Of a stretch of 64,000 bases of DNA, positions 2,634 to 63,285 are shown piece by piece. This DNA is from Nitrospirota bacterium (GTDB taxonomy: Bacteria; Nitrospirota; Thermodesulfovibrionia; UBA6902; JAJYJJ01). Position numbers and translations under genes: made by a program. Numbering within the stretch: position 1 is the first letter of the stretch; every line of letters begins with the position of its first letter. Location of the stretch: positions 1,274 through 65,273 of the forward strand of contig JAJYJJ010000009.1 in assembly GCA_021789595.1 (NCBI GenBank), read 5' to 3'. The notes under the pieces are model-generated. The model did not search any database. It was not told where the DNA came from and saw only the letters and a program-made list of their open reading frames with translations.

Positions 2634-3519
2634 GCCGTCAGGCATAACATCACAGGAGGCAATAGTTAAGGTCAGGGATACCCTTGGTGCAAAAAAGGCT
2701 GGACACAGCGGAACGCTTGACCCGATGGCATCAGGCGTCCTTATCGTGCTTCTTGATAAGGCAACAAGGCTGTCAGAGATATTCCTTAATTTTGATAAGG
2801 AATACCTTGCTACAATGAAACTCGGCGAGGCCACAGATACCCAAGATGTGGAGGGAAAGATAATCTCAAAGGTCGAATCCTTTGAGATTAACAGAGGTGA
2901 TATCGAGGCCGTCTTAAAGTCGTTTGTAGGCAGCATCAGCCAGATACCACCCATGTACTCTGCTATAAAACACGAAGGAATGCCGCTTTACAAACTGGCA
3001 AGAAAGGGTATAGAGATTCATAGAAGTCCAAGGGAGGTTTTTATTCATGAGCTTGCTGTTGAAGGGCTAAACATGCCCCTTGTTACTTTCAGGGTAAGAT
3101 GCTCCAAAGGCACTTATATACGCACCCTGTGTAATGATATAGGAATAGCCCTTGGAGTCGGTGCCCATCTGTTTTCGCTTATAAGGACAAAGGTTGGCCC
3201 ATTCACAATAAAGGATGCAGTCGGCCTTGATGAACTTCTAAATAGAGACAGAGGTATTTACAGCATTGACGATGCCCTGTCCTGGATGAAGGAGATAATG
3301 ATAAGGGATGAGGCAATTGTAAAGGTAAAAAATGGCGCTCCTCTCAAGGCAGCGGATGTGGAATATTTTAGTGATGGTATCAAGATCGGTGATAGGGTAA
3401 GGATAAAGGCAGGAGATAATACACTGCTTGCTATAGGTATTATTCAGGAGGACATGCAGTATCCTATCAGGACAGATAAGGTCATCATGGATTATGAAAA
3501 GGATTGTCTCAGGATATGA
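2608..3519 (+). CDS. truB: tRNA pseudouridine(55) synthase
   Basis: 303 aa with TruB catalytic motif 'GHSGTLDPMASGVLIVLLDKATR', followed by a PUA-like C-terminus. Confidence 0.9.
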   Translation: MSLIVNLNKPSGITSQEAIVKVRDTLGAKKAGHSGTLDPMASGVLIVLLDKATRLSEIFLNFDKEYLATMKLGEATDTQDVEGKIISKVESFEINRGDIEAVLKSFVGSISQIPPMYSAIKHEGMPLYKLARKGIEIHRSPREVFIHELAVEGLNMPLVTFRVRCSKGTYIRTLCNDIGIALGVGAHLFSLIRTKVGPFTIKDAVGLDELLNRDRGIYSIDDALSWMKEIMIRDEAIVKVKNGAPLKAADVEYFSDGIKIGDRVRIKAGDNTLLAIGIIQEDMQYPIRTDKVIMDYEKDCLRI

Positions 3520-5319: not shown

Positions 5320-6564
5320 ATGTGTGATGTTCAATGTGATGAGACAAGAAACATCTGGAAAGGTAAAACAGTCCCTGTAACAGAGGCAGTGGGAATGGTG
5401 CTGGCACACGATATCACAGAGATAAGGCAGGATGAATTTAAAGGCAGGGCATTTAAAAAAGGACATATTGTCAGACATGAGGATATAAGCCACCTTCAAA
5501 GGCTCGGCAAGGAACATCTATTTGTTCTAAACATTGCTGAAGACGAGATGCATGAAGACGATGCAGCGTATGCCCTGGCCAATGCCTTGATGGGCGAAGG
5601 CGTTACAATGGAAGGCGAACCAAAGGAGGGCAAGATAAATATTGTTGCTAATAGAGACGGGCTTTTGAAGATCAATAAGGATGCCCTTTTACAATTCAAT
5701 ATGCTCGGAGATGTTATGTGTGCAAGCCTTCATGATAATACCGTGGTAAAAAGTGGCCAGGTTGTTGCAGGCACGAGGGCAATACCGCTGGTGGTAAAAA
5801 GAAGAATAATTGAAGAGGCAATGGCAATTGCAGAAAAAGTTAGGGTAAAAATCCCCCCTTACCCCCCTTTAGTAAAGGGGGGATGGGGATTTGAGGGGAA
5901 TCAGGAGGATTATAAATTTACTGGAATAATTGCAGTTAAAAAAATGAGAAGGCCAAAGGCAGGCATCATTATTACAGGCAATGAGGTCTATTATGGAAGG
6001 ATAAAGGACGCCTTTGCACCGATTATCACAAAAAAGATCGAGACATTTAAAGGGGAAATTGTAGGGATCTACTATGCGCCTGATGATGAGGTTTTCATAG
6101 AGGCGAGATTGAGGGAACTAATAGAGGCTGGAGCTGATTTGCTAATTACAACAGGAGGCATGTCTGTTGACCCTGATGATGTAACAAGGTTTGCCATAAG
6201 AACACTTGGTGCAACTGATATCACATATGGCTCAGCAGTGCTTCCAGGTGCGATGTTTCTGGTCGCGTATTTTAATAAGTTAAAAGTTAAAAGTCAGAAG
6301 TCAGATAAACCCCTTAATCCTCCCATTACTAAGGGAGGACAGGAGGTGGACTCCGGACTCCAAACTCCAGACTCAGAACTGGTGACTATCTTGGGCATCC
6401 CTGCCTGTGGGATGTATCATAAAACTACAATATTTGATTTAATCCTTCTAAGGGTGCTTGCAGGAGAGAAAATCGGGAGATATGAGCTTGCAGAACTTGG
6501 ACATGGCGGATTATGCCTTAATTGCAAGGAGTGCAGATACCCTGTATGCCCATTTGGAAAATAG
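5320..6564 (+). CDS. molybdopterin-binding (MoCF_biosynth / MoeA-like) domain protein carrying two in-frame repeat-element insertions
   Basis: 414 aa with MoeA-like N-region and MoCF-binding core 'GIIITGNEVYYG...LLITTGGMSVDPDDV'. Two low-complexity inserts, 'IPPYPPLVKGGWGF' and 'KLKVKSQKSDKPLNPPITKGGQEVDSGLQTPDSE', are encoded by palindromic repeat DNA. Confidence 0.6.
   Translation: MCDVQCDETRNIWKGKTVPVTEAVGMVLAHDITEIRQDEFKGRAFKKGHIVRHEDISHLQRLGKEHLFVLNIAEDEMHEDDAAYALANALMGEGVTMEGEPKEGKINIVANRDGLLKINKDALLQFNMLGDVMCASLHDNTVVKSGQVVAGTRAIPLVVKRRIIEEAMAIAEKVRVKIPPYPPLVKGGWGFEGNQEDYKFTGIIAVKKMRRPKAGIIITGNEVYYGRIKDAFAPIITKKIETFKGEIVGIYYAPDDEVFIEARLRELIEAGADLLITTGGMSVDPDDVTRFAIRTLGATDITYGSAVLPGAMFLVAYFNKLKVKSQKSDKPLNPPITKGGQEVDSGLQTPDSELVTILGIPACGMYHKTTIFDLILLRVLAGEKIGRYELAELGHGGLCLNCKECRYPVCPFGK
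5848..5892. repeat. 45-bp G/C-run palindromic element (aaatcccccc-tt-acccccc-ttt agt aaagggggg-at-ggggat-tt) inserted in-frame in a CDS
   Basis: Imperfect inverted repeat with a 3-nt loop, seen directly in sequence. Length is a multiple of 3 and the reading frame is kept. Same family as the perfect copy at 61344..61390. Confidence 0.7.
6285..6390. repeat. composite repetitive insertion (direct repeats aagttaaaag x2, gactcc x4) flanking a diverged palindromic element (aaacccc-ttaatcctccc-att-act-aa-gggagg) inside the same CDS
   Basis: Seen in sequence. 'cctcccattactaagggagg' at 6319..6338 is a hairpin of the same style as the 61344 element. The insertion stays in frame. Confidence 0.5.
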
Positions 6565-9380: not shown

Positions 9381-12300
9381 ATGTTTGAACGAGATATTAT
9401 AGAGCCTGAAAAGAGTATCGCCCTAAGGGCATCTGCTGGAAGCGGAAAGACCTTTAACCTCAGTTTAAGGGTCGTTAACCTGCTTTTAAAAGGGGCAGAG
9501 CCTGATAAGATCCTCTGTATAACCTTTACAAACAAGGCAGCAAATGAGATGTATGAGCGGATTATGGAGATGCTCAGGTATCTATCCCTTGAATTGAATC
9601 CATCAAATATAAGGGCAGAGGCAGAATGCCTCCTCGGCAGTGAAATCGGCAACCCTGATGCTGTCGAAGGATTGAGACAGAGGGCAAATGAGATCAATAG
9701 AAATGTCATAAGAAACATCTCAAGACTTAAGGTATCAACAATTGACAGTTTTCTAAACAGCATCCTTAGGCTCTTTCCATTTGAGGCAGGGTTGATGCCT
9801 GACTTCAGGTTAATCACAGAAGAGATGGATGATAATCTTTACGCCCAGGCATTTGACATCTTTATAGAAGCCCTGTCATCCGATGACAAAACAAAAAAAC
9901 TCATACAGGATATTATTATACTCAGCGGTTCCGCCTTAAACTCCCCTTCGGATTTCCTCAACGATTATTTTAAAAGGCTCCTTTCCATGCGTACAGAGAT
10001 TGACCATATCCAGGGGTCATGCAGGTCATCGGAGATCTGGGATGATTTAGATGAGGTGAGAATGCTTGAGTCTGCGGCAAAGAATACCGCGAGGCAGTTT
10101 TCATCGATAATGCAGGCAAGATATCCTGGCCTTGGAAAAAATGCGGTTAATGAATTAATAAAATATGAGACATATCCGATAAAGGAGATCACAGGGCTTA
10201 CAAGTTTTTCAAAGAAGGAACACAAAGATTACAGATATTTTCCCGATGAGCGTAACGAAGAGATTCAGGCAGTCTTCGATGACCTCAAGGCAAAGACATC
10301 TGATTTTCTTATAAGGAAAAACAGGATTTTTCAGGATTCGCTGTTATATCTCTTCTACAGGTTTTTAGGCTATCTTGATGATGCAAAGCGAGAGCTTAAT
10401 GGTCTTACATTCTCAGATGTAACAAACAGGTGTTATAAGCTCCTTGTCTCAAACAACCTAATAAAGGATTCCCCTGACTATTTTTATTTCAGACTCGATA
10501 GCAGGATTGAACATCTTTTAATTGACGAGTTTCAGGACACAAATTTTACCCAGTGGCAGATACTCAAACCCATTGTTGATGAGCTCATCTCAGGCATTGG
10601 TCAGAAGGACAGGCAGGGTTCGTTTTTTTATGTCGGAGACCCCAAGCAGTCAATATACCGCTTCAGGGGAGGAGAAAGCAGGCTGTTTGACAGCATTGTC
10701 AGACAGTATAAGGGAAGGATACTTTCAAGGTCTTTAAATGACAACTACCGAAGTGCAAAGAATATAGTCAGGTTTATTAATGAAGTATTTACCAGAATAG
10801 GCATGCAATATGATTTTACCTATGAAGCACAGGATGCAATGATAGATGGTGTTGATGGATATGTTGAGGTTATGTTTTTTGATAGAAAGAGGTTTAAGGA
10901 TGTTGAGTTTAAGAAGAAACTGGTAGTGGAACATATCCAGAGACTGATCGACTGCGGGATAGAGGCTAAAGATATAACTATCCTCTGTAATAAAAATGAT
11001 GAGTGCGATAGTTATGCATCATATCTTATTAAAAATGGGATAAATGCTGTTACAGAGAGCGCTGATACATTCCTCAATGCCACGCCAGTAAGGGCAATGG
11101 TGAATCTGTTACGATACCTTGCTGATACAGGGCAGAAGGTTTATTTCCTAAGTTTTATGTCCTTAACTGAATATGTAGAAACGACGGACATCGAGGAAAA
11201 GATCCAGAGGATTTCTAACTATGCTAATCTTGTTCCTGTAAGCAAATTGCTTGCGATAATTGTCGAGGAGTTTGACTTGCTAAGGCGGTTTTCCTTTGAC
11301 CCGAACCTGCAGCTCCTGATTGAGTGTTCAACAAGCAATGAACTCGAAGACCCTGTTTCGATAAACGAATTTCTCAGCTTCGCAGAGACCAATCTCAGGG
11401 CTGTAAAGTCATTAAGAATTAATCCCGCCTATCCGCACTTTAATAAGGGAGGGATTCATAAGGGTGCTGTCTCGATCATGACTATCCATAAATCAAAGGG
11501 TCTTGAATTTCCATATGTGATAATCCCCGAGATGGAAGTAACGATGTCTCTGGATGCCAGATTAACACCGATCATATTTGAATACGATGACAACCTGTTT
11601 GTAAAAAACATCTACATAAACGAGAGAAGGGATATCCTGGAGATAAATCCACAGCTTAAAGAGGCTTACAGGTTAGAGCAGGAGTTAATTGTTCGTGACA
11701 GCCTCAATAGGCTCTATGTTGCAATGACAAGGGCAAAGCATGGGCTTTTTATAATCGCAGGGCACAGCGATGGAAACTCCGGAAAACTGCTTTCTGATGT
11801 GCTTTTAAATATCTTCAAAGAAGAACACCTTGTCTACGGCGAGATTCCCAGGCTAACAAAACAAGGCAGAGAAGATAAGGCTGAAACGCCTTTACTGCAG
11901 TCCTTAAGATCAATATGGAGCTTAAAGGACGCCAAGCCCATTATTGAGGAAGAGGAAAAGAAAGATGAAGAGATAACATCCTTTGAAGATTATCAGCACA
12001 GGCTTTTTGGCGAGGCCTTTCATTATGCAGTTCAGGTAATAAAGGGGTTTGAACAGGGTAATGTAGAGGATGCAGTCAAACTTGTGAAACAGAGATTCGG
12101 GGGACTAACATCAATCCCTCATCATTCTCCCTTGCTGAATGTGGGGTTGGAGGATCTAAAGGCAAGACTGTCTATGCTGATAGGTAATGCAGTGTTCAGA
12201 GATATTGTTAACGGGGCAGAGCTTATACGCGAAACAACATTCCTTAAGTCCCTCAAAGACTACAGGATAGACCTTATAGCATTAAAGGATAATACTGCAC

Positions 12301-12464
12301 AGGTTATTGATTTTAAGACAAATTATGATAAGGCCTCGCTAAATAAATATAAAAACCAGATAAGAAATTACTGCAGGCTTGTATCTGATGCTACAGGCAA
12401 AAAAGCATATGGCTATCTGATATTTATACTCGATGACAGGGTCGAGATTCAGGAAGTAAAGTAA
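9381..12464 (+). CDS. addA: UvrD/Rep-family helicase with C-terminal PD-(D/E)XK nuclease (AddA/RexA-like)
   Basis: 1027 aa with Walker A 'ASAGSGKTFNLS', helicase motifs ('LIDEFQDTN', 'VGDPKQSIYRFRGG', 'MTIHKSKGLEFP') and the C-terminal nuclease motif 'VIDFKTNY...YKNQIRNYCRLV'. Confidence 0.75.
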   Translation: MFERDIIEPEKSIALRASAGSGKTFNLSLRVVNLLLKGAEPDKILCITFTNKAANEMYERIMEMLRYLSLELNPSNIRAEAECLLGSEIGNPDAVEGLRQRANEINRNVIRNISRLKVSTIDSFLNSILRLFPFEAGLMPDFRLITEEMDDNLYAQAFDIFIEALSSDDKTKKLIQDIIILSGSALNSPSDFLNDYFKRLLSMRTEIDHIQGSCRSSEIWDDLDEVRMLESAAKNTARQFSSIMQARYPGLGKNAVNELIKYETYPIKEITGLTSFSKKEHKDYRYFPDERNEEIQAVFDDLKAKTSDFLIRKNRIFQDSLLYLFYRFLGYLDDAKRELNGLTFSDVTNRCYKLLVSNNLIKDSPDYFYFRLDSRIEHLLIDEFQDTNFTQWQILKPIVDELISGIGQKDRQGSFFYVGDPKQSIYRFRGGESRLFDSIVRQYKGRILSRSLNDNYRSAKNIVRFINEVFTRIGMQYDFTYEAQDAMIDGVDGYVEVMFFDRKRFKDVEFKKKLVVEHIQRLIDCGIEAKDITILCNKNDECDSYASYLIKNGINAVTESADTFLNATPVRAMVNLLRYLADTGQKVYFLSFMSLTEYVETTDIEEKIQRISNYANLVPVSKLLAIIVEEFDLLRRFSFDPNLQLLIECSTSNELEDPVSINEFLSFAETNLRAVKSLRINPAYPHFNKGGIHKGAVSIMTIHKSKGLEFPYVIIPEMEVTMSLDARLTPIIFEYDDNLFVKNIYINERRDILEINPQLKEAYRLEQELIVRDSLNRLYVAMTRAKHGLFIIAGHSDGNSGKLLSDVLLNIFKEEHLVYGEIPRLTKQGREDKAETPLLQSLRSIWSLKDAKPIIEEEEKKDEEITSFEDYQHRLFGEAFHYAVQVIKGFEQGNVEDAVKLVKQRFGGLTSIPHHSPLLNVGLEDLKARLSMLIGNAVFRDIVNGAELIRETTFLKSLKDYRIDLIALKDNTAQVIDFKTNYDKASLNKYKNQIRNYCRLVSDATGKKAYGYLIFILDDRVEIQEVK

Positions 12465-14357: not shown

Positions 14358-14380
14358 TATCTCCTTTGCACCCCAAAAGA

Positions 14381-14767
14381 TCAAGGATCTTTTGGGGACC
14401 CCGTTTCAACCCGAGGGAGTTCTATAACCTTTGATTCCTCTCTGGGCATGATGGACCTTCCCTCAAAAGAGCCGCCCTCTGCAATGGAGAGTTTAGGGGT
14501 CTTTATCTCGCCGGTAACGCTACCTTTGGTCTTTATCTCCACAATCTCCTTTGCGCCAAGGTTCCCTTCAATACTTCCTCCTATGATGATACCCTTGGCA
14601 GATACATCGCCCTTAACACTGCCGCTGTCTCCAACAATAACCCAATCTGCCTCTATATTGCCCTCTACACTGCCATCTATCCTCAATGTCCCATGATTTT
14701 TTATATTGCCATTAACAAATGTCCCTTTGCCAAGAAATGACTCAATCCTCTCATGTCTTTTAAACAT
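14381..14767 (-). CDS. bactofilin (CcmA-type polymer-forming cytoskeletal protein)
   Basis: 128 aa made of beta-helix repeats 'GNIKNHGTLRIDGSVEGNIEA...VKGDVSAKGIIIGGSIEGNL' diagnostic of the bactofilin/DUF583 fold. Confidence 0.8.
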   Translation of the reverse strand: MFKRHERIESFLGKGTFVNGNIKNHGTLRIDGSVEGNIEADWVIVGDSGSVKGDVSAKGIIIGGSIEGNLGAKEIVEIKTKGSVTGEIKTPKLSIAEGGSFEGRSIMPREESKVIELPRVETGSPKDP

Positions 14768-24159: not shown

Positions 24160-24193
24160 AATACGAACAGGCTGTTTAAAAACCCTGTTGTGT
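24160..24193. promoter_or_regulatory. perfect 12-bp inverted repeat gtgtcattgcga-N10-tcgcaatgacac between the stress gene and the cytochrome operon
   Basis: Seen directly in sequence. No downstream U-tract, so it is either an operator or an RNA hairpin. Confidence 0.35.
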
Positions 24194-24242
24194 CATTGCG
24201 AGGAGCAATTTTCGCAATGACACAATCTATGAGGAGAACATT

Positions 24243-31438: not shown

Positions 31439-32032
31439 ATGTTCTGCACTAAGATTCCGAGACTTATAGAAGATGGCCGTATCATGCTGCGACCTCTTCG
31501 GCTCAGCGATGGCCCATTCTTGAGTAATGGATTAAGAGACGAAGACATTTTGAAGGCAAAGGGGTTAAATAAGCCTGTATCTCCATCATGGTTTTTTATC
31601 TGGTGGTGGTTTAGAAAGACCTATATTTGCCCTTTCTGCATTGAATTGAATTCAATGCCCATAGGATTTATAGGTCTATACAACGTGAGACTCGGTAAAT
31701 CTGCCGAAATAAGTCTGGTGATATTCGACAAAACCTTAAGGAGACAGGGTTATGGGACCAGGGCGTTTAAGCTTTTTGCGAAAAGCCTGCAGAGGCATTC
31801 AGTAGTGGAAAAAATACTCATAAAGATTAAGGCAGATAACCACATTGCACTTTCATTCTGGAGGAAACTTGGTTTTGTGGAGGCAAGTATTTCGAATGGT
31901 ATAAATGGTATAATCAGTATGTCTATGGATTTATTAATGGCCTCAAAAATAGAATTGACACTAATTATAAAATCTCCCCTCGCCCCTCTTTGCCAAAGAG
32001 GGGAAATCCTACCTTTGGCAAAGGGAGGTTAG
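31439..32032 (+). CDS. GNAT family N-acetyltransferase whose C-terminus is encoded by a palindromic repeat element
   Basis: GNAT core 'IGFIGLYNV...RRQGYGTRAFKLF...WRKLGFVE'. The last ~20 codons ('IIKSPLAPLCQRGEILPLAKGG') are read from the repeat at 31968..32044. Confidence 0.55.
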   Translation: MFCTKIPRLIEDGRIMLRPLRLSDGPFLSNGLRDEDILKAKGLNKPVSPSWFFIWWWFRKTYICPFCIELNSMPIGFIGLYNVRLGKSAEISLVIFDKTLRRQGYGTRAFKLFAKSLQRHSVVEKILIKIKADNHIALSFWRKLGFVEASISNGINGIISMSMDLLMASKIELTLIIKSPLAPLCQRGEILPLAKGG

Positions 32033-32044
32033 GAGGGATTTTCA
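31968..32044. repeat. composite palindromic element (aaaatctcccct ... cccctctttgccaaagagggg ... cctacctttggcaaagggagg ... aggagggatttt)
   Basis: Nested inverted repeats with C5/G5-type arms, seen in sequence. Related in style to the 61344 element. Confidence 0.55.
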
Positions 32045-34289: not shown

Positions 34290-35408
34290 ATGGACCGACA
34301 TACGATTCCATTGGGACGCATTCTGGGTATCCCTATTGGACTGGATTATTCCTGGTTTTTGATTTTTATACTGCTCACCTGGACGATGGCCGTTGGCTAC
34401 TACCCGGCTGAATTTAAGAACTGGCCCACGACCCAATATTGGGTCGTGGGCGCGGCGACTGCCATCATGCTGTTTGTGAGCGTACTGCTGCATGAGTTGG
34501 GACATTCGGTGGTGGCGATGCACTACAAAATTCCGGTGCGGAGCATCACGCTCTTTATCTTTGGCGGCATCTCCCTCATTGGCGCCGAACCACCAAACGC
34601 TGCTGCTGGATTCTGGATCGCCATCGCTGGCCCTGTTGTCAGTTTCGTTTTGGCAGTCCTCCTCAGTCTGACGCAGCCTTTCTTCGCAGGTGTCGCCCCA
34701 CTACTGGCCCTGTTCAAATATCTGGTCTATATCAACGTCGCGATAGGCTTGTTCAATCTTATTCCGGGCTTTCCCCTGGACGGTGGCGGTGTCCTTCGGG
34801 CCATTGTCTGGAGTATCAACCACAACATGCGCCGGGCCACCCTCATCGCCGCCAATGTTGGGCGATTCATCGCCTACCTCTTCATCTTCTTCGGTGTGTG
34901 GCAAATATTTGGTGGCAACTTCATCAACGGCATGTGGATCGCCTTCATCGGCTGGTTTCTTGAGAGTGCCGCCAGGGGGCAGGTTCAGCAACTGGCGCTT
35001 CACGATATGCTGGCAGGCCGTAAAGTGTCACAGGCAATGAATCGGCAATACGCAGCCATCCCTGCCGACACTACCTTGCAACACCTGGTGGACGATCACA
35101 TTTTGGGCAGCGGCCGCCGGAGTTTCGTGGTCAAGCGGGGTGATGATGTTATTGGCTTGTTGACCTTACATCACATAAAAGATGTCCCGCGGTCTGAATG
35201 GCCAGTGATGACCACCGCTCAAGCCATGATCCCGATAGAGCAAACGAAACGGGTGCGGCCAGATGAGGAGCTGTGGACAGCTCTGGAAGAGATGGACCGC
35301 GATGGGGTCAATCAACTTCCCGTAATGGTGGATGGGCAAATTCAGGGTATGCTCAGCCGGGAGGATATTATCAGCTATTTGCGCACTCTACGGGAATTCG
35401 GTGCTTAG
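34290..35408 (+). CDS. site-2 protease family (M50) zinc metalloprotease with tandem CBS domains
   Basis: 'HELGH' zinc motif and 'NLIPGFPLDGG', then CBS pair ('VSQAMNRQYAAIPADTTL...', '...LPVMVDGQIQGMLSRED'). A ~105-nt stretch within the gene counts at ~59% GC versus ~40% nearby. The ATG at 34290 is preceded by AAGGAGG. Confidence 0.75.
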   Translation: MDRHTIPLGRILGIPIGLDYSWFLIFILLTWTMAVGYYPAEFKNWPTTQYWVVGAATAIMLFVSVLLHELGHSVVAMHYKIPVRSITLFIFGGISLIGAEPPNAAAGFWIAIAGPVVSFVLAVLLSLTQPFFAGVAPLLALFKYLVYINVAIGLFNLIPGFPLDGGGVLRAIVWSINHNMRRATLIAANVGRFIAYLFIFFGVWQIFGGNFINGMWIAFIGWFLESAARGQVQQLALHDMLAGRKVSQAMNRQYAAIPADTTLQHLVDDHILGSGRRSFVVKRGDDVIGLLTLHHIKDVPRSEWPVMTTAQAMIPIEQTKRVRPDEELWTALEEMDRDGVNQLPVMVDGQIQGMLSREDIISYLRTLREFGA

Positions 35409-52874: not shown

Positions 52875-53726
52875 TTAATAAAACTCCTTCACAGTAGCAG
52901 CTAATCCTGACAGGTCGAAGGATTGCCTTACAAGGGGTTTATCCTTGATTACTGGTATTCTCTCCTCAAATATTGGACGGTTATTGCGATAGATTACACC
53001 AATAGGTATGCGCTGTCCCCATTCAAGGGCCTTTTTAAACGCCTCTGTCCTGTCTTCAGGGTTGTATTCTGGCTCTATGTGATAGACCCTCTGCCTATAC
53101 CATTCATAGGTATTGACTTTATTGAATGTTACACAGGGCTGAAGGATATCAACCAGAGAAAATCCCCTGTGGTTTACCGCCTCTTTTATCAGGCCTTTTA
53201 AATGCACATTATCGCCTGCAAATCCTCTTGCCACAAAGCTGCAGTCAAGGGCTACTGCCAGTGCCATGGGATTGAGCTGCTCAGAAAGGACTCCAAAGGG
53301 CTGATTCTTTGTTGTCATGCCCTCCATACTTGTAGGAGATGCCTGACCCTTTGTGAGTCCGTATATCTGGTTGTCATGCACAAAGAGTTTTACATTGATG
53401 TTCCTTCTCATGGCATGTATTAAGTGGTTTCCGCCCTCGCCATAACAGTCCCCATCTCCAGCAACGGCGATTACAAGCATCTCATGATCGGCAAGCCTTA
53501 TCCCTGATGCAACAGGGAGCGTCCTTCCGTGAAGGCCGTTGAAGGTATTACATTTCAGATAATGGGGGAATTTCCCTGCCTGACCTATTCCGGAGACAAT
53601 GGTAAACTGATAAGGCTCTATGGCAAGCTCCATCATGGCATCTTTAAATGACTTTAATATGCCGAAATTACCGCATCCAGGACACCATGCAGGGTTCTGC
53701 CCTTTATAATCATCTAAGGATGACAT
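52875..53726 (-). CDS. korB: 2-oxoacid:ferredoxin oxidoreductase beta subunit (TPP-binding, KorB-like)
   Basis: 'WCPGCGNFGI' and TPP motif 'AGDGDCYGEGGNHLIHAMRRNINVKLFVHDNQIYGLTKGQ'. Confidence 0.8.
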   Translation of the reverse strand: MSSLDDYKGQNPAWCPGCGNFGILKSFKDAMMELAIEPYQFTIVSGIGQAGKFPHYLKCNTFNGLHGRTLPVASGIRLADHEMLVIAVAGDGDCYGEGGNHLIHAMRRNINVKLFVHDNQIYGLTKGQASPTSMEGMTTKNQPFGVLSEQLNPMALAVALDCSFVARGFAGDNVHLKGLIKEAVNHRGFSLVDILQPCVTFNKVNTYEWYRQRVYHIEPEYNPEDRTEAFKKALEWGQRIPIGVIYRNNRPIFEERIPVIKDKPLVRQSFDLSGLAATVKEFY

Positions 53727-55431
53727 TTAATTCCTTCAATAACCCTTCCAGCGAAAACGGTCTTCCATCGTATTTATTAATCAATCTATTGAAAGTGTAT
53801 CCTGTTTCTGTCTTCATAAGGCGGGCGAACTGTCCTGTTGCATTATTTTCAATGCATAAGGTTAATCCTGCACTCTTCAGTACCTTAATGTAATTGAATT
53901 TAGCTGTGGACGGAAGTGGATAGATCTCACTGAAGTGCAGCATGGCTATACTATAATTCTTTGACAGCTCATCAACCACCTCCTTCATCACTCCATAGGT
54001 TGACCCCCACCCTGTAACTACTATCTCTGGATCAGAATCACCATAAAGAAATGGGGCATCTATCTCTTTTCTGATAAAGGGCGATTTCTTAAACAGTCTC
54101 TTTTGTACCATTTTTATCCTTGTCTCTGCATCCTCAACAATATGCCCTTCTTCATCATGTTCGTCGCTGTCTGTTACAACAAGGTGTTTTGCATCTCCAG
54201 GGACACCTAACAATGACACCCCGCTTTCAGTAAAGGCATGTCTTTTATATTCCCTGAGATCTCTAAATGCCTCGCCCCTTAATCTGTAATCTGTATATTT
54301 AACCCTGCTTAGATCAAACCCTTCAAATGTCCACTGGGAATCAGCAAGGTATTGGTCGGTAAGGATAAACACAGGTATCTGGTATTTCTCTGCTATATCA
54401 AATGCCTTGTTTGTGAGATAGAATGCCTGCTCAGGTGTGCCCGGGGCAAATATTACTCTTGGAAATTCCCCGTGTGCTGTATACAGGGCAAATTGCAGTT
54501 CAGCCTGTTCTGTTCTCGTGGGGAATCCTGTAGCAGGCCCCGGCCTCTGCGCAAGGGCAATGACTATCGGGGTCTCTGTCATGGCAGCCAAGGAAAGGCC
54601 CTCTACCATTAATGCAAAACCTCCTCCTGAGCTCCCTGTCATAGCCCTGACGCCTGCAAATGAAGCGCCCAATGCCATGTTAATGGCTGCAATCTCGTCC
54701 TCTGCCTGTTCAACGATAATTCCGTATTCCTTTGCCTTGCTCGCGATATAGAGCATAATCCCAGTCGAGGGTGTCATTGGATACGCTGAATAGAATTTAC
54801 AACCCGATGCAATAGCGCCAAGTCCTACAGCCTCATTTCCTGCAATTAAAAGTAGGGGCGAACTGCCGTTCGCCCCTACAGAGAATGAACATCGCAAACA
54901 TTCCTTCGCAGCATAATCATGGCCAGCCATAGCAGTATTGATATTCGCCTTTATAATATCTTCACCCTTCTTTTTGAATATATCCTTTATAATTTCAAGG
55001 AGGATGTTCAATTCCATGCCAAGCATGCCTAACACTGCTCCAGTGGCAACGGTGTTTGCCATTATCTTATTTCCGCCATGTTCTACCGCTAAATTGACGA
55101 AGGGGATGTCCACAGAGTTTTGAGTTGAGAGTTTAGAGTTATGACTTTTTGAGTCATAGATTATCTGACCGTATTCTGAAAGCTCTTTTTCATGAAGCAG
55201 TATGCTTTCTTTATCGAGGGCAACCAGGATATCAATAATGTCTCTGCATGCTGTTACAGGCTTGTCAGAAAACCTTATCTGGAAAAAATTGTGACCGCCC
55301 CTTATGCGTGACTCATAATCCTGATGGGTAAATACATGATAACCTGCCCTTGAAAATACCCTCGCAAGGGTGTCTCCAATAGTCTGTATACCCTGTCCTG
55401 CCTCACCGCCTATCTTGATTGAGTAGTCCAA
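53710..55431 (-). CDS. korA: 2-oxoacid:ferredoxin oxidoreductase alpha subunit with fused N-terminal gamma domain (KorA-like)
   Basis: 573 aa. N-terminal gamma-like 'IGGEAGQGIQTIGDTLARV', followed by the pyruvate-flavodoxin-OR-type alpha domain. Confidence 0.8.
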   Translation of the reverse strand: MDYSIKIGGEAGQGIQTIGDTLARVFSRAGYHVFTHQDYESRIRGGHNFFQIRFSDKPVTACRDIIDILVALDKESILLHEKELSEYGQIIYDSKSHNSKLSTQNSVDIPFVNLAVEHGGNKIMANTVATGAVLGMLGMELNILLEIIKDIFKKKGEDIIKANINTAMAGHDYAAKECLRCSFSVGANGSSPLLLIAGNEAVGLGAIASGCKFYSAYPMTPSTGIMLYIASKAKEYGIIVEQAEDEIAAINMALGASFAGVRAMTGSSGGGFALMVEGLSLAAMTETPIVIALAQRPGPATGFPTRTEQAELQFALYTAHGEFPRVIFAPGTPEQAFYLTNKAFDIAEKYQIPVFILTDQYLADSQWTFEGFDLSRVKYTDYRLRGEAFRDLREYKRHAFTESGVSLLGVPGDAKHLVVTDSDEHDEEGHIVEDAETRIKMVQKRLFKKSPFIRKEIDAPFLYGDSDPEIVVTGWGSTYGVMKEVVDELSKNYSIAMLHFSEIYPLPSTAKFNYIKVLKSAGLTLCIENNATGQFARLMKTETGYTFNRLINKYDGRPFSLEGLLKELNVILR

Positions 55432-59087: not shown

Positions 59088-61330
59088 TCAGTCAGTGCCA
59101 CGATCTCTTGTTTCAAGTGTTTTTTCATGGGGCACTGAAAGTGCAAATGCCTTTGATAGTTCCGCCACGGCCTGCATAAACCTTTTCTTTCCATCATCCT
59201 GCAGGAGGATACACTCCATTGCCTCTTTTATAACAGTCAACCTTTCGGCAGGACTGCCGGATAAGAATCTTGAATAGTCAAATCCATGAAACATTGATGA
59301 AACAATCTCATATTTCTCAAGCATTATAGCGACTGCCTCTTCCTGAGGAATGCCTGTCATGTCACGGTCTCTTTCTATGTAATCGGAAAGTGCCTTCTTC
59401 AGTTCATCTGCAATGCCAAGGTAATCAACCACCAGACCACCTGGTTTATCCTTAAATACCCTGTTGACTCTGGCTATTGCCTGCATAAGCCCGTGTCCGC
59501 GCATTGGCTTGTCTATATACATGGTATGAAGACAGGGAGCATCAAAGCCTGTGAGCCACATATCACGCACAATGACAAGTTTAAATGGATGCTCAGTTTT
59601 TTTTGAAAAGGTTTTTGCAAGTTTCTCTCTCTTTGCTTTGTTCCTGATATGCTGCTGCCATTCTACAGGATCAGATGCAGAACCGGTCATAACTACCTTC
59701 AAGAATCCCTTATCATTATCTTTATGATGCCATTCAGGCCTGAGTTTGATTAATGCATTATAGAGATCAACACATATACGCCTGCTCATGCAGACGATCA
59801 TGCCTTTCCCGTCCATAGCCTCAAGCCTTTTCGCAAAGTGATCAATAATGTCTTTCGCCACGAGGCCGATACGTTTTTCTGTCCCGACCATTGCCTCAAG
59901 CTGTGCCCATTTCCGCTTTAGCTTTTCCTTTACATTTATCTCTTCTCCCTCTGTCACTTCTTCAAATTCAGGGTCAATCCTTGGCCTTTCTTCTTCCCCT
60001 CTATAGGCGTACCTGTGAATCCGATAAACGAGGCGTTCGGAAGGGCATCTCTCATATGTCTGGCAAAGCCATCTATGAAGTCATACTGGCTCCTGTGCGC
60101 CTCATCAGCAATAACAATTATATTCCTTCTGTCAGAGAGCTTGGGATAATCCCCTCCTTTTTCAGGCAAAAACTTCTGTATGGTTGTAAACACAACACCG
60201 CCTGATGCGACATTGAGAAGCTTTCTAATATCTTCCCTGCTTCCCGCCTGCACGGGTGTCTGCCTGAGCAGGTCTCTGCACCGTGAAAATGTCCCGAACA
60301 ACTGGTCATCAAGGTCATTGCGGTCTGTAAGAAGAACGATCGTTGGATTCTGCATTTCAGGATGCTGTATTATCTTCCCAGCATAAAATACCATTGTCAG
60401 GCTTTTGCCACTCCCCTGTGTATGCCAGACAACACCAACCCGTTTGTCACCCTTTGGAGATACCGCCTGAATCGTACATTCAACAGCCTTATTTACTGCA
60501 TGGAATTGATGATATCCTGCCATCTTCTTTACAATTTCAGAGCCGTCAATCTCAAAGACAAGGAAGTATCTTAGTAAATCAAGAAATCTCTGCCTTTCAA
60601 AGATTCCCTTAATCATTACCTCAAGTTCAGGAAGACCCTTCGGAGCTAAATCATCTCCTGTTATTGTTCTCCACGGCAGAAACCATTCCCAGTCTGCAGT
60701 CAGAGTCCCTGCCCTTGCCTCTATACCGTCAGAGACAAGGAGGATTCCGTTATAAAGGAAAAGAGAGGGGATTTCTTTTTTGTATGTCTGCAATTGATTA
60801 AATGCATCCTTAACTGTTGCATTTTCGTCAGAGGGATTCTTAAGTTCAATTACACCTAATGGTATGCCATTCACGAAAACAACTATGTCAGGCCGTCTGT
60901 TACTTTGTCCTTCAACAACTGTGAACTGATTAACTGCCAGCCAGTTGTCGTTATCAAGATTGTCGAAATCTATAATCCCGACACTGTCACCAACAATCCG
61001 GCCTTCTGCGTCTTTATATTCAACCTCTATACCTTCAGTAAGCATTTTATGAAACCGATGATTGTTTGCTGCAAGAAGGGGCGATTCGTGAATAATCCTT
61101 GTTAATTTACGGAAGGCATCCTCAATTGCCTCATCTGGAATAGCAGGATTGATTTTCGTTAAAGCAGAACGAACCCTATTCTCAAGAATCACATCGCTGT
61201 AAGATGCCCGTTCAGCAAATAATTCACCAGAAGCAATATCTGGTTCATTGAGAACGGAATACCCCAACCCCTTGAACCAGTCAAGGGCTGCTTGTTCTAT
61301 TTCTGATTCTGTAATAATATTTCTCTTCAT
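59088..61330 (-). pseudogene. hsdR: type I restriction enzyme R subunit (HsdR), disrupted: frameshift at ~59955, internal deletion and truncated C-terminus
   Basis: Upstream ORF (458 aa) has the nuclease N-domain and helicase motifs '[13 protein letters not shown]', '[11 protein letters not shown]', 'GFTGTP'. Downstream ORF (289 aa, GTG start overlapping the first stop as GTGA) resumes at 'WAQLEAMVG' and carries '[15 protein letters not shown]'. About 100 aa expected between motif III and this point are missing, and the usual ~200 aa C-terminal domain is absent. Confidence 0.65.
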
Positions 61331-61343
61331 TTTTCAGTTTCCT

Positions 61344-61390
61344 AAATCCCCCTTAATCCCCCTTTAGCAAAGGGGGATTAAGGGGGATTT
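61344..61390. repeat. perfect 47-bp palindrome aaatcccccttaatcccccttt-agc-aaagggggattaagggggattt (22-nt arms, 3-nt loop)
   Basis: Seen directly in sequence, immediately upstream of the hsdR start. This is the best-preserved copy of the element family seen at 5848, ~6307 and 31968. Confidence 0.85.
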
Positions 61391-61666: not shown

Positions 61667-61933
61667 TTAAGCCGCTGTTGATTGCGGCAAAATACTCTTT
61701 TCGTTTGAGCCATATTTTATGCTTGTTTTAATGTCTTCTGCTGTAAAACAATGGCTTGCATCATACCTGCGGAAAAGCTTATCAATCGCTGATGCAAGAG
61801 CCACGGACTCTGCCTCATCCATTTCTCTTTTCAACTTTATGCCAAGCTTGTTTTTTAGGACACGGCCGCGAGAGTCGGTCTCAAATTGGGCTTCGGGTAA
61901 AGCTGATGTGTCATAACGACCGGATTTTTTCAT
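61667..61933 (-). pseudogene. Fic/Doc-family protein N-terminal fragment (no HPFx[DE]GNGR core)
   Basis: 88 aa containing the conserved Fic N-terminal 'GRVLKNKLGIK...EAESVAL'. The ORF stops before the catalytic motif and no continuation is found in any frame. Confidence 0.45.
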
Positions 61934-62090
61934 ATCTTCTCCACAAACCTCTCCGCATCCTCACTATGATTTCCTCCGACAACAGCTTTGGCAGCAAGGT
62001 GTCACGGATAGAGGCGAGGGTGCGGGATTGTATCGCATTATTAATTCGTTTCTCTATTAAAGGACTTATAATTGTATCCAATAAATCTAA

Positions 62091-63026
62091 TTAATCAGGC
62101 GAAGGAATAAGAACTTTGGCTTCCGCCAGATGATGGCGCTGGATATGCCCCATCGTGGTAGCTTTAGTAGCTGCAATCGCTTGAAAATCTGATAAATAAT
62201 GTTTTGTCCACAAATAATAAAACCATTTGGGATAGTTTTTTGATGTTACCTTAAACAAATGCTGATTCAACGCACCACGACCACCGCACCATATAACTAC
62301 CTCAAGACTACCAGACCAAGAAAATAATATATCTCCATCGCTGACAATATAGGCAGGGTTAATATTAACACTTGCCTTATCGCTTCCTTCGGTGCTGTCT
62401 TTCCTTAATTGTGCAATTTTTATTACTGGCAGGAAATCATAATCATTTTCTGGTGGATACTTCTGCAAAGCTAATCCGTTCAGATAATCAGCTATTTCAC
62501 CAAGGCTTCCCACCCCCCACCCCTTCGGAATCTTGCCGAGCGGCGAATCTTGCCATTCTTTATGAGGGCCAAGGCCGGAGATATGGTCGAAGTCCACAAA
62601 CCATGATTTAAAAATCGCCCTTGCCATAGCCTCAAGTGTCTCATTCATTTTCCTGTTCAGTTCAATCTTATCATCCAGCGCACCTAAGATTGATGCAATG
62701 GCTTTTTGTTCGGGGAGAGGAGGGAGATTAAGCGTCAATCTTGCAATTGCACTTGCTGGCACTCGTTGCCGTCCTGTTGAACCTTCCATGTGCTGAATAG
62801 CATAATTTCTGAACTCAGGGTCTCCTACCAGGTAGTAAACAAAAAGGTTGTCAGATATGCCATCTTTACCTGAAAGCACTATAAATTCGGTTGAACCATG
62901 TCCTACGACATCATCAGGTAAGCAACTTAAGAATACTGTTTTACCATTTTCAAGACAAGGTGTAATTCTTGCCAACAAAGTATCACCATTTTGAAATCGT
63001 GAACCAGAACCTTTAAATTCTTTCAT
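62091..63026 (-). CDS. hsdS: type I R-M specificity subunit HsdS, atypical/truncated (starts mid-TRD, lacks distal conserved repeat)
   Basis: 311 aa with central conserved region 'LPPLPEQKAIASILGALDDKIELNRKMNETLEAMARAIFKSWFVDFD' flanked by TRD-like sequence. The N-terminus 'GDTLLARITPCLENGK' is normally internal to a TRD. Confidence 0.6.
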   Translation of the reverse strand: MKEFKGSGSRFQNGDTLLARITPCLENGKTVFLSCLPDDVVGHGSTEFIVLSGKDGISDNLFVYYLVGDPEFRNYAIQHMEGSTGRQRVPASAIARLTLNLPPLPEQKAIASILGALDDKIELNRKMNETLEAMARAIFKSWFVDFDHISGLGPHKEWQDSPLGKIPKGWGVGSLGEIADYLNGLALQKYPPENDYDFLPVIKIAQLRKDSTEGSDKASVNINPAYIVSDGDILFSWSGSLEVVIWCGGRGALNQHLFKVTSKNYPKWFYYLWTKHYLSDFQAIAATKATTMGHIQRHHLAEAKVLIPSPD

Positions 63027-63204: not shown

Positions 63205-63249
63205 GGGGCGACCTGTTGGGTCGCCCAAAGAGGGCGAGGCCTCGCCCCT
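63205..63249. repeat. tandem GC-rich hairpins (ggggcgacc-tgtt-gggtcgccc; agggcgagg-cctcgccct) preceded by C-run motif atcccccattcccc
   Basis: Seen in sequence, between the ORF6N stop and the hsdS start on the minus strand. Terminator-like, but it lacks a U-tract. Confidence 0.45.
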
Positions 63250-63285
63250 ACATGATAATGTTGTAATGAATTATTAATCCTGCAA

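Follow-up and report, generated by a model that had tools for sequence, protein, structure and literature searches.

The stretch of DNA analysed here (the window) comprises 64,000 nt of a contig from a Nitrospirota bacterium (GCA_021789595.1, JAJYJJ010000009.1) and carries a perfect palindrome at positions 61344-61390, AAATCCCCCTTAATCCCCCTTT-AGC-AAAGGGGGATTAAGGGGGATTT, next to a decayed type I restriction gene, hsdR. As the original prediction, a short note made from the sequence alone, had described for this 47-bp element, the 22-nt arms are 100% complementary in the window sequence, around a loop of 3 nt. Folded as single-stranded DNA, the palindrome reaches -24.9 kcal/mol, compared to -8.0 ± 1.9 for shuffled sequences (z = -9.0), and none of 200 shuffles folded as well; it lies far above chance expectation. 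The same note had placed the palindrome in the 5′ region of hsdR, which needs correction: it is an intergenic element, located 14 nt upstream of the ATG codon at 61330 with which the open reading frame (ORF) 59954..61330 starts on the minus strand, and the AGGA ribosome-binding site of this hsdR fragment directly abuts it. That hsdR has decayed was borne out, as the gene is split into an N-terminal fragment with HSDR_N and SWI2_SNF2 domains (59954..61330, minus strand, outside the element) and a second fragment with a T1R_D3-like domain (59088..59957), and is truncated within its C-terminal T1RH-like_C domain. The restriction-modification locus has also decayed beyond hsdR (61667-63026). The hsdS gene is seemingly split into 62091..63026 and a 56-aa ORF with a conserved C-terminal LLPKLLS motif (61911..62081), and the gap between hsdS and hsdR is about 340 nt of non-coding DNA with short ORFs only. 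No gene remnant was recognisable in the non-coding stretch beside the palindrome.

In the palindrome, a 33-nt unit on the plus strand (61344-61376) is combined with an inverted one on the minus strand (61358-61390); the two share one CCCCCTTT/AAAGGGGG hairpin and match the unit with no mismatches on either strand. It represents the fused form, without a central region and without a gene. The unit itself is asymmetric, AAATCCCCC-N3-5-CCCCCTTT-NNN-AAAGGGGG, with a single-stranded tag (AAATCCCCC), a linker of 3-5 nt and an 8-9 bp hairpin, CCCCC(C)TTT-NNN-AAAGGGGG(G). It was derived from a scan of viral contigs (IMG/VR) with the pattern CCCCN{3,7}CCCCCTTTNNNAAAGGGGG, in which 137 distinct sites were aligned on the hairpin. 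In this alignment, the AAAT located 5′ of the first C-run is 64-88% conserved, though absent from the search pattern, the 3′ side past the first G-run is random, and no T-tract follows the hairpin of the half-unit. The matches in genome contigs repeat this pattern, with AAAT kept and a random 3′ side. Since AAAT is conserved and the 3′ side is not, the building block is an asymmetric 33-nt unit. The loop is often conserved across phyla as TTC/GAA, beside the AAAT tag for which no selection had been made. Some units stand alone; others form inverted pairs, in which both relative orders occur, or are fused on a common hairpin.

Within the window, the core CCCCCTTTNNNAAAGGGGG occurs three times when up to two mismatches are allowed, versus 0.05 expected, and a census with the 23 specified bases of the unit and up to five mismatches detected nine half-units, compared to none in five shuffled windows. 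Besides the palindrome at 61344, these include a near-perfect fused pair at 5849-5881 and 5863-5892 (plus and minus strand, 0 and 1 mismatches) and a two-hairpin composite at 31970-32002 and 32009-32041 (plus and minus strand, 3 and 4 mismatches). The others are weak and uncertain candidate relics inside ORF 9381..12464, one at 11420-11451 (plus strand, 5/23 mismatches) and one pair at 12112-12144 and 12127-12157 (plus and minus strand, 5/23 mismatches each). A further, decayed copy at about 6307-6346, CCCCTTAATCCTCCCATTACTAAGGGAGGACAGGAGG, enclosed by an outer inverted repeat made of GTCAGAA-type heptamers (6292..6372), exceeds 5/23 mismatches and fails the census; we assign this weak relic to the family by its context, a loop in which homologous proteins carry clear copies. 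Hence, of the three diverged relatives named in the original prediction, those at 5848-5892 and 31968-32044 belong to the family by sequence, and the one at 6307-6346 by context. The composite, taken as 31962-32044, provides the GNAT ORF 31439..32032 with its final ~25 codons and its stop; the GNAT domain of this ORF ends near residue 148-165.

The unit is widespread outside this contig. A genome pattern with 25 specified bases, AAATCCCCCN{3,6}CCCCCTTTNNNAAAGGGGG, for which 0.004 matches are expected by chance in 596 Gb, gave at least 120 matches in contigs of one genome per species. The matches listed come from at least 12 phyla and include Desulfobacterota, Nitrospirota (including Thermodesulfovibrionales), Omnitrophota, Schekmanbacteria, Patescibacteria, Chloroflexota, Ignavibacteria, Myxococcota, Acidobacteriota, Methylomirabilota, a Melainabacterium, and the Beta- and Gammaproteobacteria Chromatium okenii, Lysobacter, Pseudoxanthomonas, Iodobacter, Methylobacter and Sulfuricella. 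Many of these matches lie at contig ends, as expected because the repeat is multicopy. The looser pattern CCCCN{3,7}CCCCCTTTNNNAAAGGGGG is abundant in IMG/VR viral contigs, with at least 120 loci among the matches listed. In the plasmids of PLSDB only a handful of weak matches appeared, which makes the family a rare one among plasmids from cultured bacteria. The element is thus not unique to the window, and its copies form one family with a conserved structure beyond their C/G runs, as had been proposed. A Mu-type portal protein (PF06074) is encoded by 27 of the 120 unit-bearing viral contigs (L006-L125; for example, L073 2681-4921 and L022 5700-6368), and in a GemA protein (PF06252) from a viral contig, a unit is translated in frame to PPPPFAKGG. 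The repeat may be carried between hosts with the help of transposable Mu-like phages.

We then examined the behaviour of 171 unit sites in 846 kb of matched genome loci. By a crude gene call, 66% of these units are intergenic, in DNA of which 83% lies in ORFs. Relative to co-directional neighbours, 26 units are in sense and 26 in antisense orientation, while 19 intergenic units lie between divergent genes and eight between convergent genes, the rarest class. Pairs within 300 nt are found as '-+' (15), '+-' (12) and fused (5), and the copies of a given genome have a linker, a loop and extended flanks in common. In composites of ~95 nt (L064) and ~150 nt (Thalassocella), units occupy both ends, the flanks are unrelated and, in both cases, the similarity stops exactly at AAAT and ATTT. 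The intergenic bias, the lack of an orientation preference and the shared flanks are the behaviour of a selfish repeat, and not of a terminator or regulatory site. No target-site duplication was visible at the copies examined.

Two copies in the window, 5848-5892 and ~6307-6346, lie in frame inside ORF 5320..6564 (PF00994, MoCF_biosynth), where they are read as KIPPYPPLVKGGWGF and KPLNPPITKGGQE, respectively. Alignment of this ORF with homologues from Thermodesulfovibrionales and other Nitrospirota revealed two loop hot spots (residues ~172-203 and ~317-357). The shortest homologues (353-360 aa) have no insert at either hot spot; a PPxxPLxKGG-type insert is present at the first in 32 of 120 homologues, and a clear PPxxKGG unit at the second in seven of 120. 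At the DNA level, the window gene and four homologues with a related insert at the first hot spot share 67-77% nucleotide identity, and 40-57% at third codon positions. For three homologues sharing an IPPxPPLxKGGWG insert, these values are 67-73% and 41-52%, and their insert DNA is near-identical, with differences only in the hairpin loop and the length of one G-run. The sequence ATCCCCCCTTACCCCCCTTT is identical between the window gene and the homologue P0067. Elsewhere in the genes compared, the proline codon CCC and the glycine codon GGG are rare. As the insert DNA is near-identical and the third positions are diverged, the element is maintained as DNA, which implies recurrent insertion or gene conversion from other copies rather than selection for the peptide. 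Three near-identical strains differ in having both inserts, one, or none, and this presence or absence falls within mosaic blocks of ~85% identity in a gene that is otherwise 99-100% identical; the inserts therefore travel by recombination. Since C/G runs encode proline and glycine in every reading frame, the copies survive in protein surface loops.

Nearly each of the 120 homologues has a different palindromic peptide at these hot spots. Other types of insert include QDAGYR..ASCI, EEQKSRSAE..SELPNFRASEL, ADCGL..SEIQNPKS and SPIHPFTHSPI, and therefore several unrelated families of hairpin repeats colonise the same sites, sometimes nested.

We looked for a gene associated with the unit by clustering the ORFs within 2.5 kb of units at 120 unit-seeded loci. 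This singled out one small family, tightly bracketed by units at six of the 120 loci, in different phyla, and encoding a 115-aa protein of the DUF559 family (PF04480; Pfam, E 1e-31 to 1e-34). In 1.9 Mb of unit-bearing loci, no second candidate enzyme family was recurrent next to units. The association was quantified on a set of 80 metagenome loci gathered by DUF559 protein similarity alone, of which 73 had enough flanking sequence. In 40 of the 73 loci under strict and 54 under relaxed matching, a minus-strand unit lay upstream of the gene and ended at a distance of 1-25 nt from the start codon (P 1e-55 to 1e-75), and a plus-strand unit was present within 150 nt downstream in 15 and 26 loci, respectively (P 4e-14 to 1e-25). 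These are binomial values against a background of 0.08-0.12 units per kb, or 0.013-0.02 per flank, from which ~1-1.5 loci would be expected. The upstream unit puts GGGGGATTT at the position expected of a ribosome-binding site for the DUF559 gene, and the downstream plus-strand unit, or a whole composite, starts at or just after the stop codon, which the unit often overlaps (TAATCCCCC... or TGATTTATAAAATCTCCCCT.ACCCCTCTTTGCCAAAGAGGGG). The composite at 31962-32044 of the window can be aligned over its full length with the 3′ module found in DUF559 cassettes at five such loci (L326, L327, L290, L283 and L300), and alignments of composite modules from unrelated contigs with the window extend beyond 80 nt. 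Hence, the unit is tightly coupled to the DUF559 gene.

The DUF559 protein has the conservation of a nuclease: the putative catalytic residues E25, D54, E65, D67, H71 and D80 are 98-100% conserved in 70 sequences, and the nearest solved structure is that of a Neisseria DUF559 protein (3HRL, E 8e-21). DUF559 has been placed in one clade with Vsr and the homing endonuclease I-Bth0305I (PMC3424549, PMC3239194). The subfamily comprises at least 7939 clusters (90% identity) at E 1e-10, and the best 120 of these are 86-96% identical and mostly on short contigs. DUF559 proteins that are 88% identical occupy unrelated gene neighbourhoods. More distant DUF559 genes (L211 and the Peribacteria locus L142) are flanked by other hairpin variants, which, together with the E. 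coli case described below, suggests that the association with units extends across the whole Pfam family.

Several DUF559 loci showed additional features. Positions 5256-5942 of L211 contain three DUF559 gene fragments that repeat every 275 nt and are each accompanied by a variant unit, CCTCCCCTNACCCCTCCTTACAAAGGAGGGG; the whole is a tandem array of decayed cassettes. In one DUF559 subfamily (L259, L283, L286, L290, L306, L323, L326 and L333), the cassette lies within an outer inverted repeat, CGTGGAAGTGAGTGGGTAAAA ... GAAATGACCCACTCGATTACGCGAAGAG, which suggests an insertion into the centre of another palindromic element. At L333, the cassette and a gene for a Pol-beta-type nucleotidyltransferase stand between a rubrerythrin gene and a duplicate of its 3′ end (124 nt, 82% identical; 2279-2400 and 3355-3478), as if an insertion had carried a replacement for the end of the gene with it.

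E. coli BoxC palindromes have been known since the early 1990s, and E. coli K-12 carries a single DUF559 gene, ycjD (L328, NC_000913.3 1351200-1351830). The ycjD stop codon lies within a degenerate unit, a C-block/G-block hairpin, which is followed by a duplicated fragment of ycjD's own 3′ end and, 170 nt downstream of ycjD, by the BoxC-like palindrome TCCCCTCGCCCCTCT-GGGG-AGAGGGTTAGGGTGAGGGGA. Each of the 5426 complete E. coli genomes contains this palindrome, in a median of 18 copies and at most 32, which fits the published figures for BoxC, 56 bp and about 20-32 copies per E. coli genome (PMC2267715). The probability that one of 18-32 copies lies so close to a given gene by chance is 0.004-0.008, in a test that is post hoc. 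BoxC was reportedly first described next to envM (fabI), which is the neighbour gene here. The palindrome adjacent to ycjD is thus probably BoxC, a naming that relies on copy number, length and the proximity to envM. It shares a 15-mer, TCCCCTCGCCCCTCT, with positions 31972-31986 of the window, and its arrangement of blocks with the composite at 31968; homology between the unit family and the E. coli palindrome is plausible. A perfect 17-nt inverted repeat (TCACCTCATTCTGACAA / TTGTCAGAATGAGGTGA) precedes ycjD and overlaps its start.

The family resembles several known systems and differs from each of them. Like repetitive extragenic palindromic (REP) sequences, their REPIN doublets and the associated tyrosine transposases (RAYT), it has a hairpin preceded by a short, conserved tag on the 5′ side, singlets alongside inverted doublets, tens to hundreds of mostly extragenic copies, and a small nuclease-type gene between inverted copies. 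However, the tag is AAATCCCCC with a 3-5 nt linker before the hairpin, where REP sequences have GTAG/GTGG, the unit is conserved across phyla and not lineage-specific, and copies are tolerated in frame within genes. The bracketed gene encodes a DUF559 PD-(D/E)XK enzyme and not a Y1 HUH transposase, and so neither forms a covalent intermediate nor rejoins DNA. The fused palindrome shares with BoxC its two C-blocks, short loop and two G-blocks, whereas the C-blocks of BoxC are interrupted (CCCCTC) and its ends lack AAAT/ATTT. As in the Rickettsia palindromic elements (RPEs), palindromic repeats lie in frame at tolerated surface positions and add a peptide; RPEs, however, are 100-150 bp long, Rickettsia-specific and have no known partner enzyme, and the units are set apart by size and composition (33-90 bp, cross-phylum, Pro/Gly-rich in every frame). 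Composites with terminal inverted repeats around a short variable core recall classical MITEs (miniature transposable elements with inverted repeats) such as Correia/NEMIS and Nezha, but neither a target-site duplication nor a parent insertion sequence with a DDE transposase was found, and the minimal form has no core. Of the roles that the original prediction had offered, a mobile MITE- or REP-like element is the best supported. The Vsr-like (EDxHD) homing endonuclease I-Bth0305I belongs to the same clade of Vsr, DUF559 and DUF2726 (PMC3424549), and DUF559 shares with it the Vsr-like fold, conserved catalytic residues and the nature of a free-standing selfish nuclease gene, which could spread by break-induced copying. 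Enzymes of the I-Bth0305I type, in contrast, have extra DNA-binding domains and unique sites in conserved genes, and reside in introns, inteins and phage genes, while the 115-aa DUF559 protein is a bare nuclease domain tied to a dispersed repeat.

We favour, with modest confidence, the view that the palindrome at 61344 is a selfish element of the REP/BoxC kind, which is non-autonomous and probably has the DUF559 nuclease as its partner. In the mechanism that we envisage, the nuclease would recognise the tag and the hairpin, probably in an extruded or single-stranded form, and nick or cut there; host recombination and repair would then place copies of the units, and at times of the gene as well, at new sites or at existing ones, and would also homogenise the copies. 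Such a scheme would parallel the dependence of REP sequences on RAYT transposases, with a different enzyme that is unable to rejoin DNA. The broader proposal, that DUF559 (PF04480), a very large family, is the dedicated nuclease of pan-bacterial hairpin repeats including BoxC, is tentative, and we put it at slightly under an even chance.

Several observations weigh against assigning this role to DUF559. Since a PD-(D/E)XK nuclease cannot ligate, the host must supply any transposition-like step. The window contains no DUF559 gene or remnant. An identical DUF559 protein on 12 contigs from different samples lies at one locus each time, so there is no direct sign of very recent jumps, and an all-against-all BLAST of 330 loci gave no clean filled-versus-empty site but only polymorphism blurred by recombination. 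Co-variation of unit subtype with DUF559 subclade was undetectable in 70 sequences. Furthermore, the DUF559 query came from unit-seeded loci, and the association is therefore established for that subfamily (52-76% identity) and only suggested beyond it; in the Peribacteria locus L142, the flanking repeats are of opposite polarity and different sequence, so that the geometry is not uniform.

The chief rival explanation, which we consider rather unlikely, is that DUF559 is only cargo or a preferred neighbour, for example a repair or defence gene that uses the units as ribosome-binding site and terminator, and that the gene-less copies are spread by another transposase, or by recombination and horizontal transfer alone. 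The placement of GGGGGATTT at ribosome-binding-site distance and of the downstream unit over the stop codon would suit plain expression signals, identical DUF559 proteins are confined to one locus, and units greatly outnumber DUF559 genes (171 units versus six genes in 846 kb). Set against this are the conserved catalytic residues, the absence of a rival enzyme family near units in the 1.9 Mb, and the distant DUF559 genes (L211, L142 and ycjD) with other hairpin variants, as expected for an enzyme-substrate pair but not for a random cargo. Mobilisation of a classical REP/REPIN by a RAYT (Y1 HUH) transposase encoded elsewhere in the genome would account for the layout of tag and hairpin, the frequent inverted doublets, the mostly extragenic location and the GTAG-tagged palindromes of the window (see below) and, as RAYT genes are single-copy, the gene could easily fall outside the sampled DNA. 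This is nevertheless very improbable, as the tag is AAATCCCCC and not GTAG/GTGG, REP sequences are lineage-specific and the unit is conserved across phyla, the gene actually bracketed is DUF559, and tblastn with IS200 TnpA and E. coli YafM (approximate queries of limited sensitivity) detected no Y1 transposase in the 1.9 Mb or the window.

A functional cis-element kept by selection at each site, such as a bidirectional terminator, an attenuator or an RNA-stability hairpin, is likewise improbable. It draws on the palindrome at 61344, which lies between upstream genes and hsdR and is scored as terminator-like on the plus strand, where a GC-rich hairpin of 20-22 bp is followed by a T6 tail, and on the A/T runs that end the fused palindromes on both sides. 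However, no plus-strand gene lies upstream of this copy in the gene map of the window that could be terminated, a T-tract is absent from the common half-unit, copies are read in frame within genes, and units show neither an orientation preference (26 versus 26) nor an excess between convergent genes (8, fewer than the 19 between divergent genes). Rfam identified one tRNA only in the whole window at gathering score, with no family for the palindrome, and at the palindrome locus gave only generic hairpin matches, far below gathering score, at E values up to 10. The terminator or attenuator role in the original prediction is thus not retained as the function of the family, and the 61344 copy alone fits an intrinsic terminator, on its plus strand. 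We strongly disfavour an independent origin of the hairpins by slippage or template switching on C/G runs, with a merely convergent resemblance, and give it hardly any weight. The arms are internally repetitive (ATCCCCCTT occurs twice), and many other repeat-built palindrome families occupy the same protein loops in this lineage, but the 25-base pattern, for which chance predicts 0.004 matches, recurs at least 120 times, the AAAT tag, though unselected, is kept across phyla, as the TTC/GAA loop often is, and composites align over more than 80 nt between the window and unrelated contigs. A full-length insertion sequence between distant unit pairs was also considered and rejected, as the intervening genes at L161 are ordinary and no transposase-bearing element was present; integron attC sites, CRISPR, DNA uptake sequences and KOPS (FtsK-orienting polar sequences) were dropped on sequence and layout, by consideration only.

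At the hsdR locus, the 61344 copy is probably a passive insertion. Its very stable hairpin, located directly 5′ of the hsdR ribosome-binding site, may hinder read-through or translation of an operon that had already decayed, and recent activity of this copy would be plausible, judging from its perfect arms.

The window also holds palindromes of other kinds. GC-rich, GTAG-tagged palindromes occur at 54852-54879, GTAGGGGCGAAC-TGCC-GTTCGCCCCTAC, with perfect 12-nt arms inside ORF 53710..55431, and at 63205-63251, where GGGCGAGGCCTCGCCCCTAC adjoins another hairpin; they are a second, classical REP-like family in the same genome. Three perfect short palindromes are unrelated to these, at 34424-34451 (GCCCACGACCCAAT/ATTGGGTCGTGGGC, no loop), 24188-24225 (TTGTGTCATTGCGA..TCGCAATGACACAA) and 14371-14397 (CCCCAAAAGATC..GATCTTTTGGGG).

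Palindromic repeats, BoxC, the REP/RAYT partnership and in-frame RPEs are already known. Searches with DNA and peptide strings retrieved no report of this unit across phyla, nor any work on DUF559 that links it to a repeat family, within a searchable literature that is incomplete. Both the asymmetric half-unit and the link to DUF559 had also been missed by the original prediction.

Small palindromic repeats are common in bacteria, but only a minority of the families, BoxC not among them, have a known agent of spread. Here, one hairpin family is common to at least a dozen phyla and to phage contigs, is written in frame into proteins as Pro/Gly-rich loops, and shows a tight and specific coupling to the gene of a small nuclease. 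Should this enzyme act on the repeat, DUF559 would gain a function and BoxC an origin, and bacterial repeats would have a second route of proliferation that does without transposase chemistry; the spurious 'PPLxKGG' peptides and broken contigs in metagenome annotations would also be explained. This would constitute a second, independently evolved partnership between a repeat and a domesticated nuclease, like that of REP and RAYT but built on a Vsr-like PD-(D/E)XK enzyme, and would explain both the homogenisation of the repeats at the DNA level and their in-frame seeding in protein loops.

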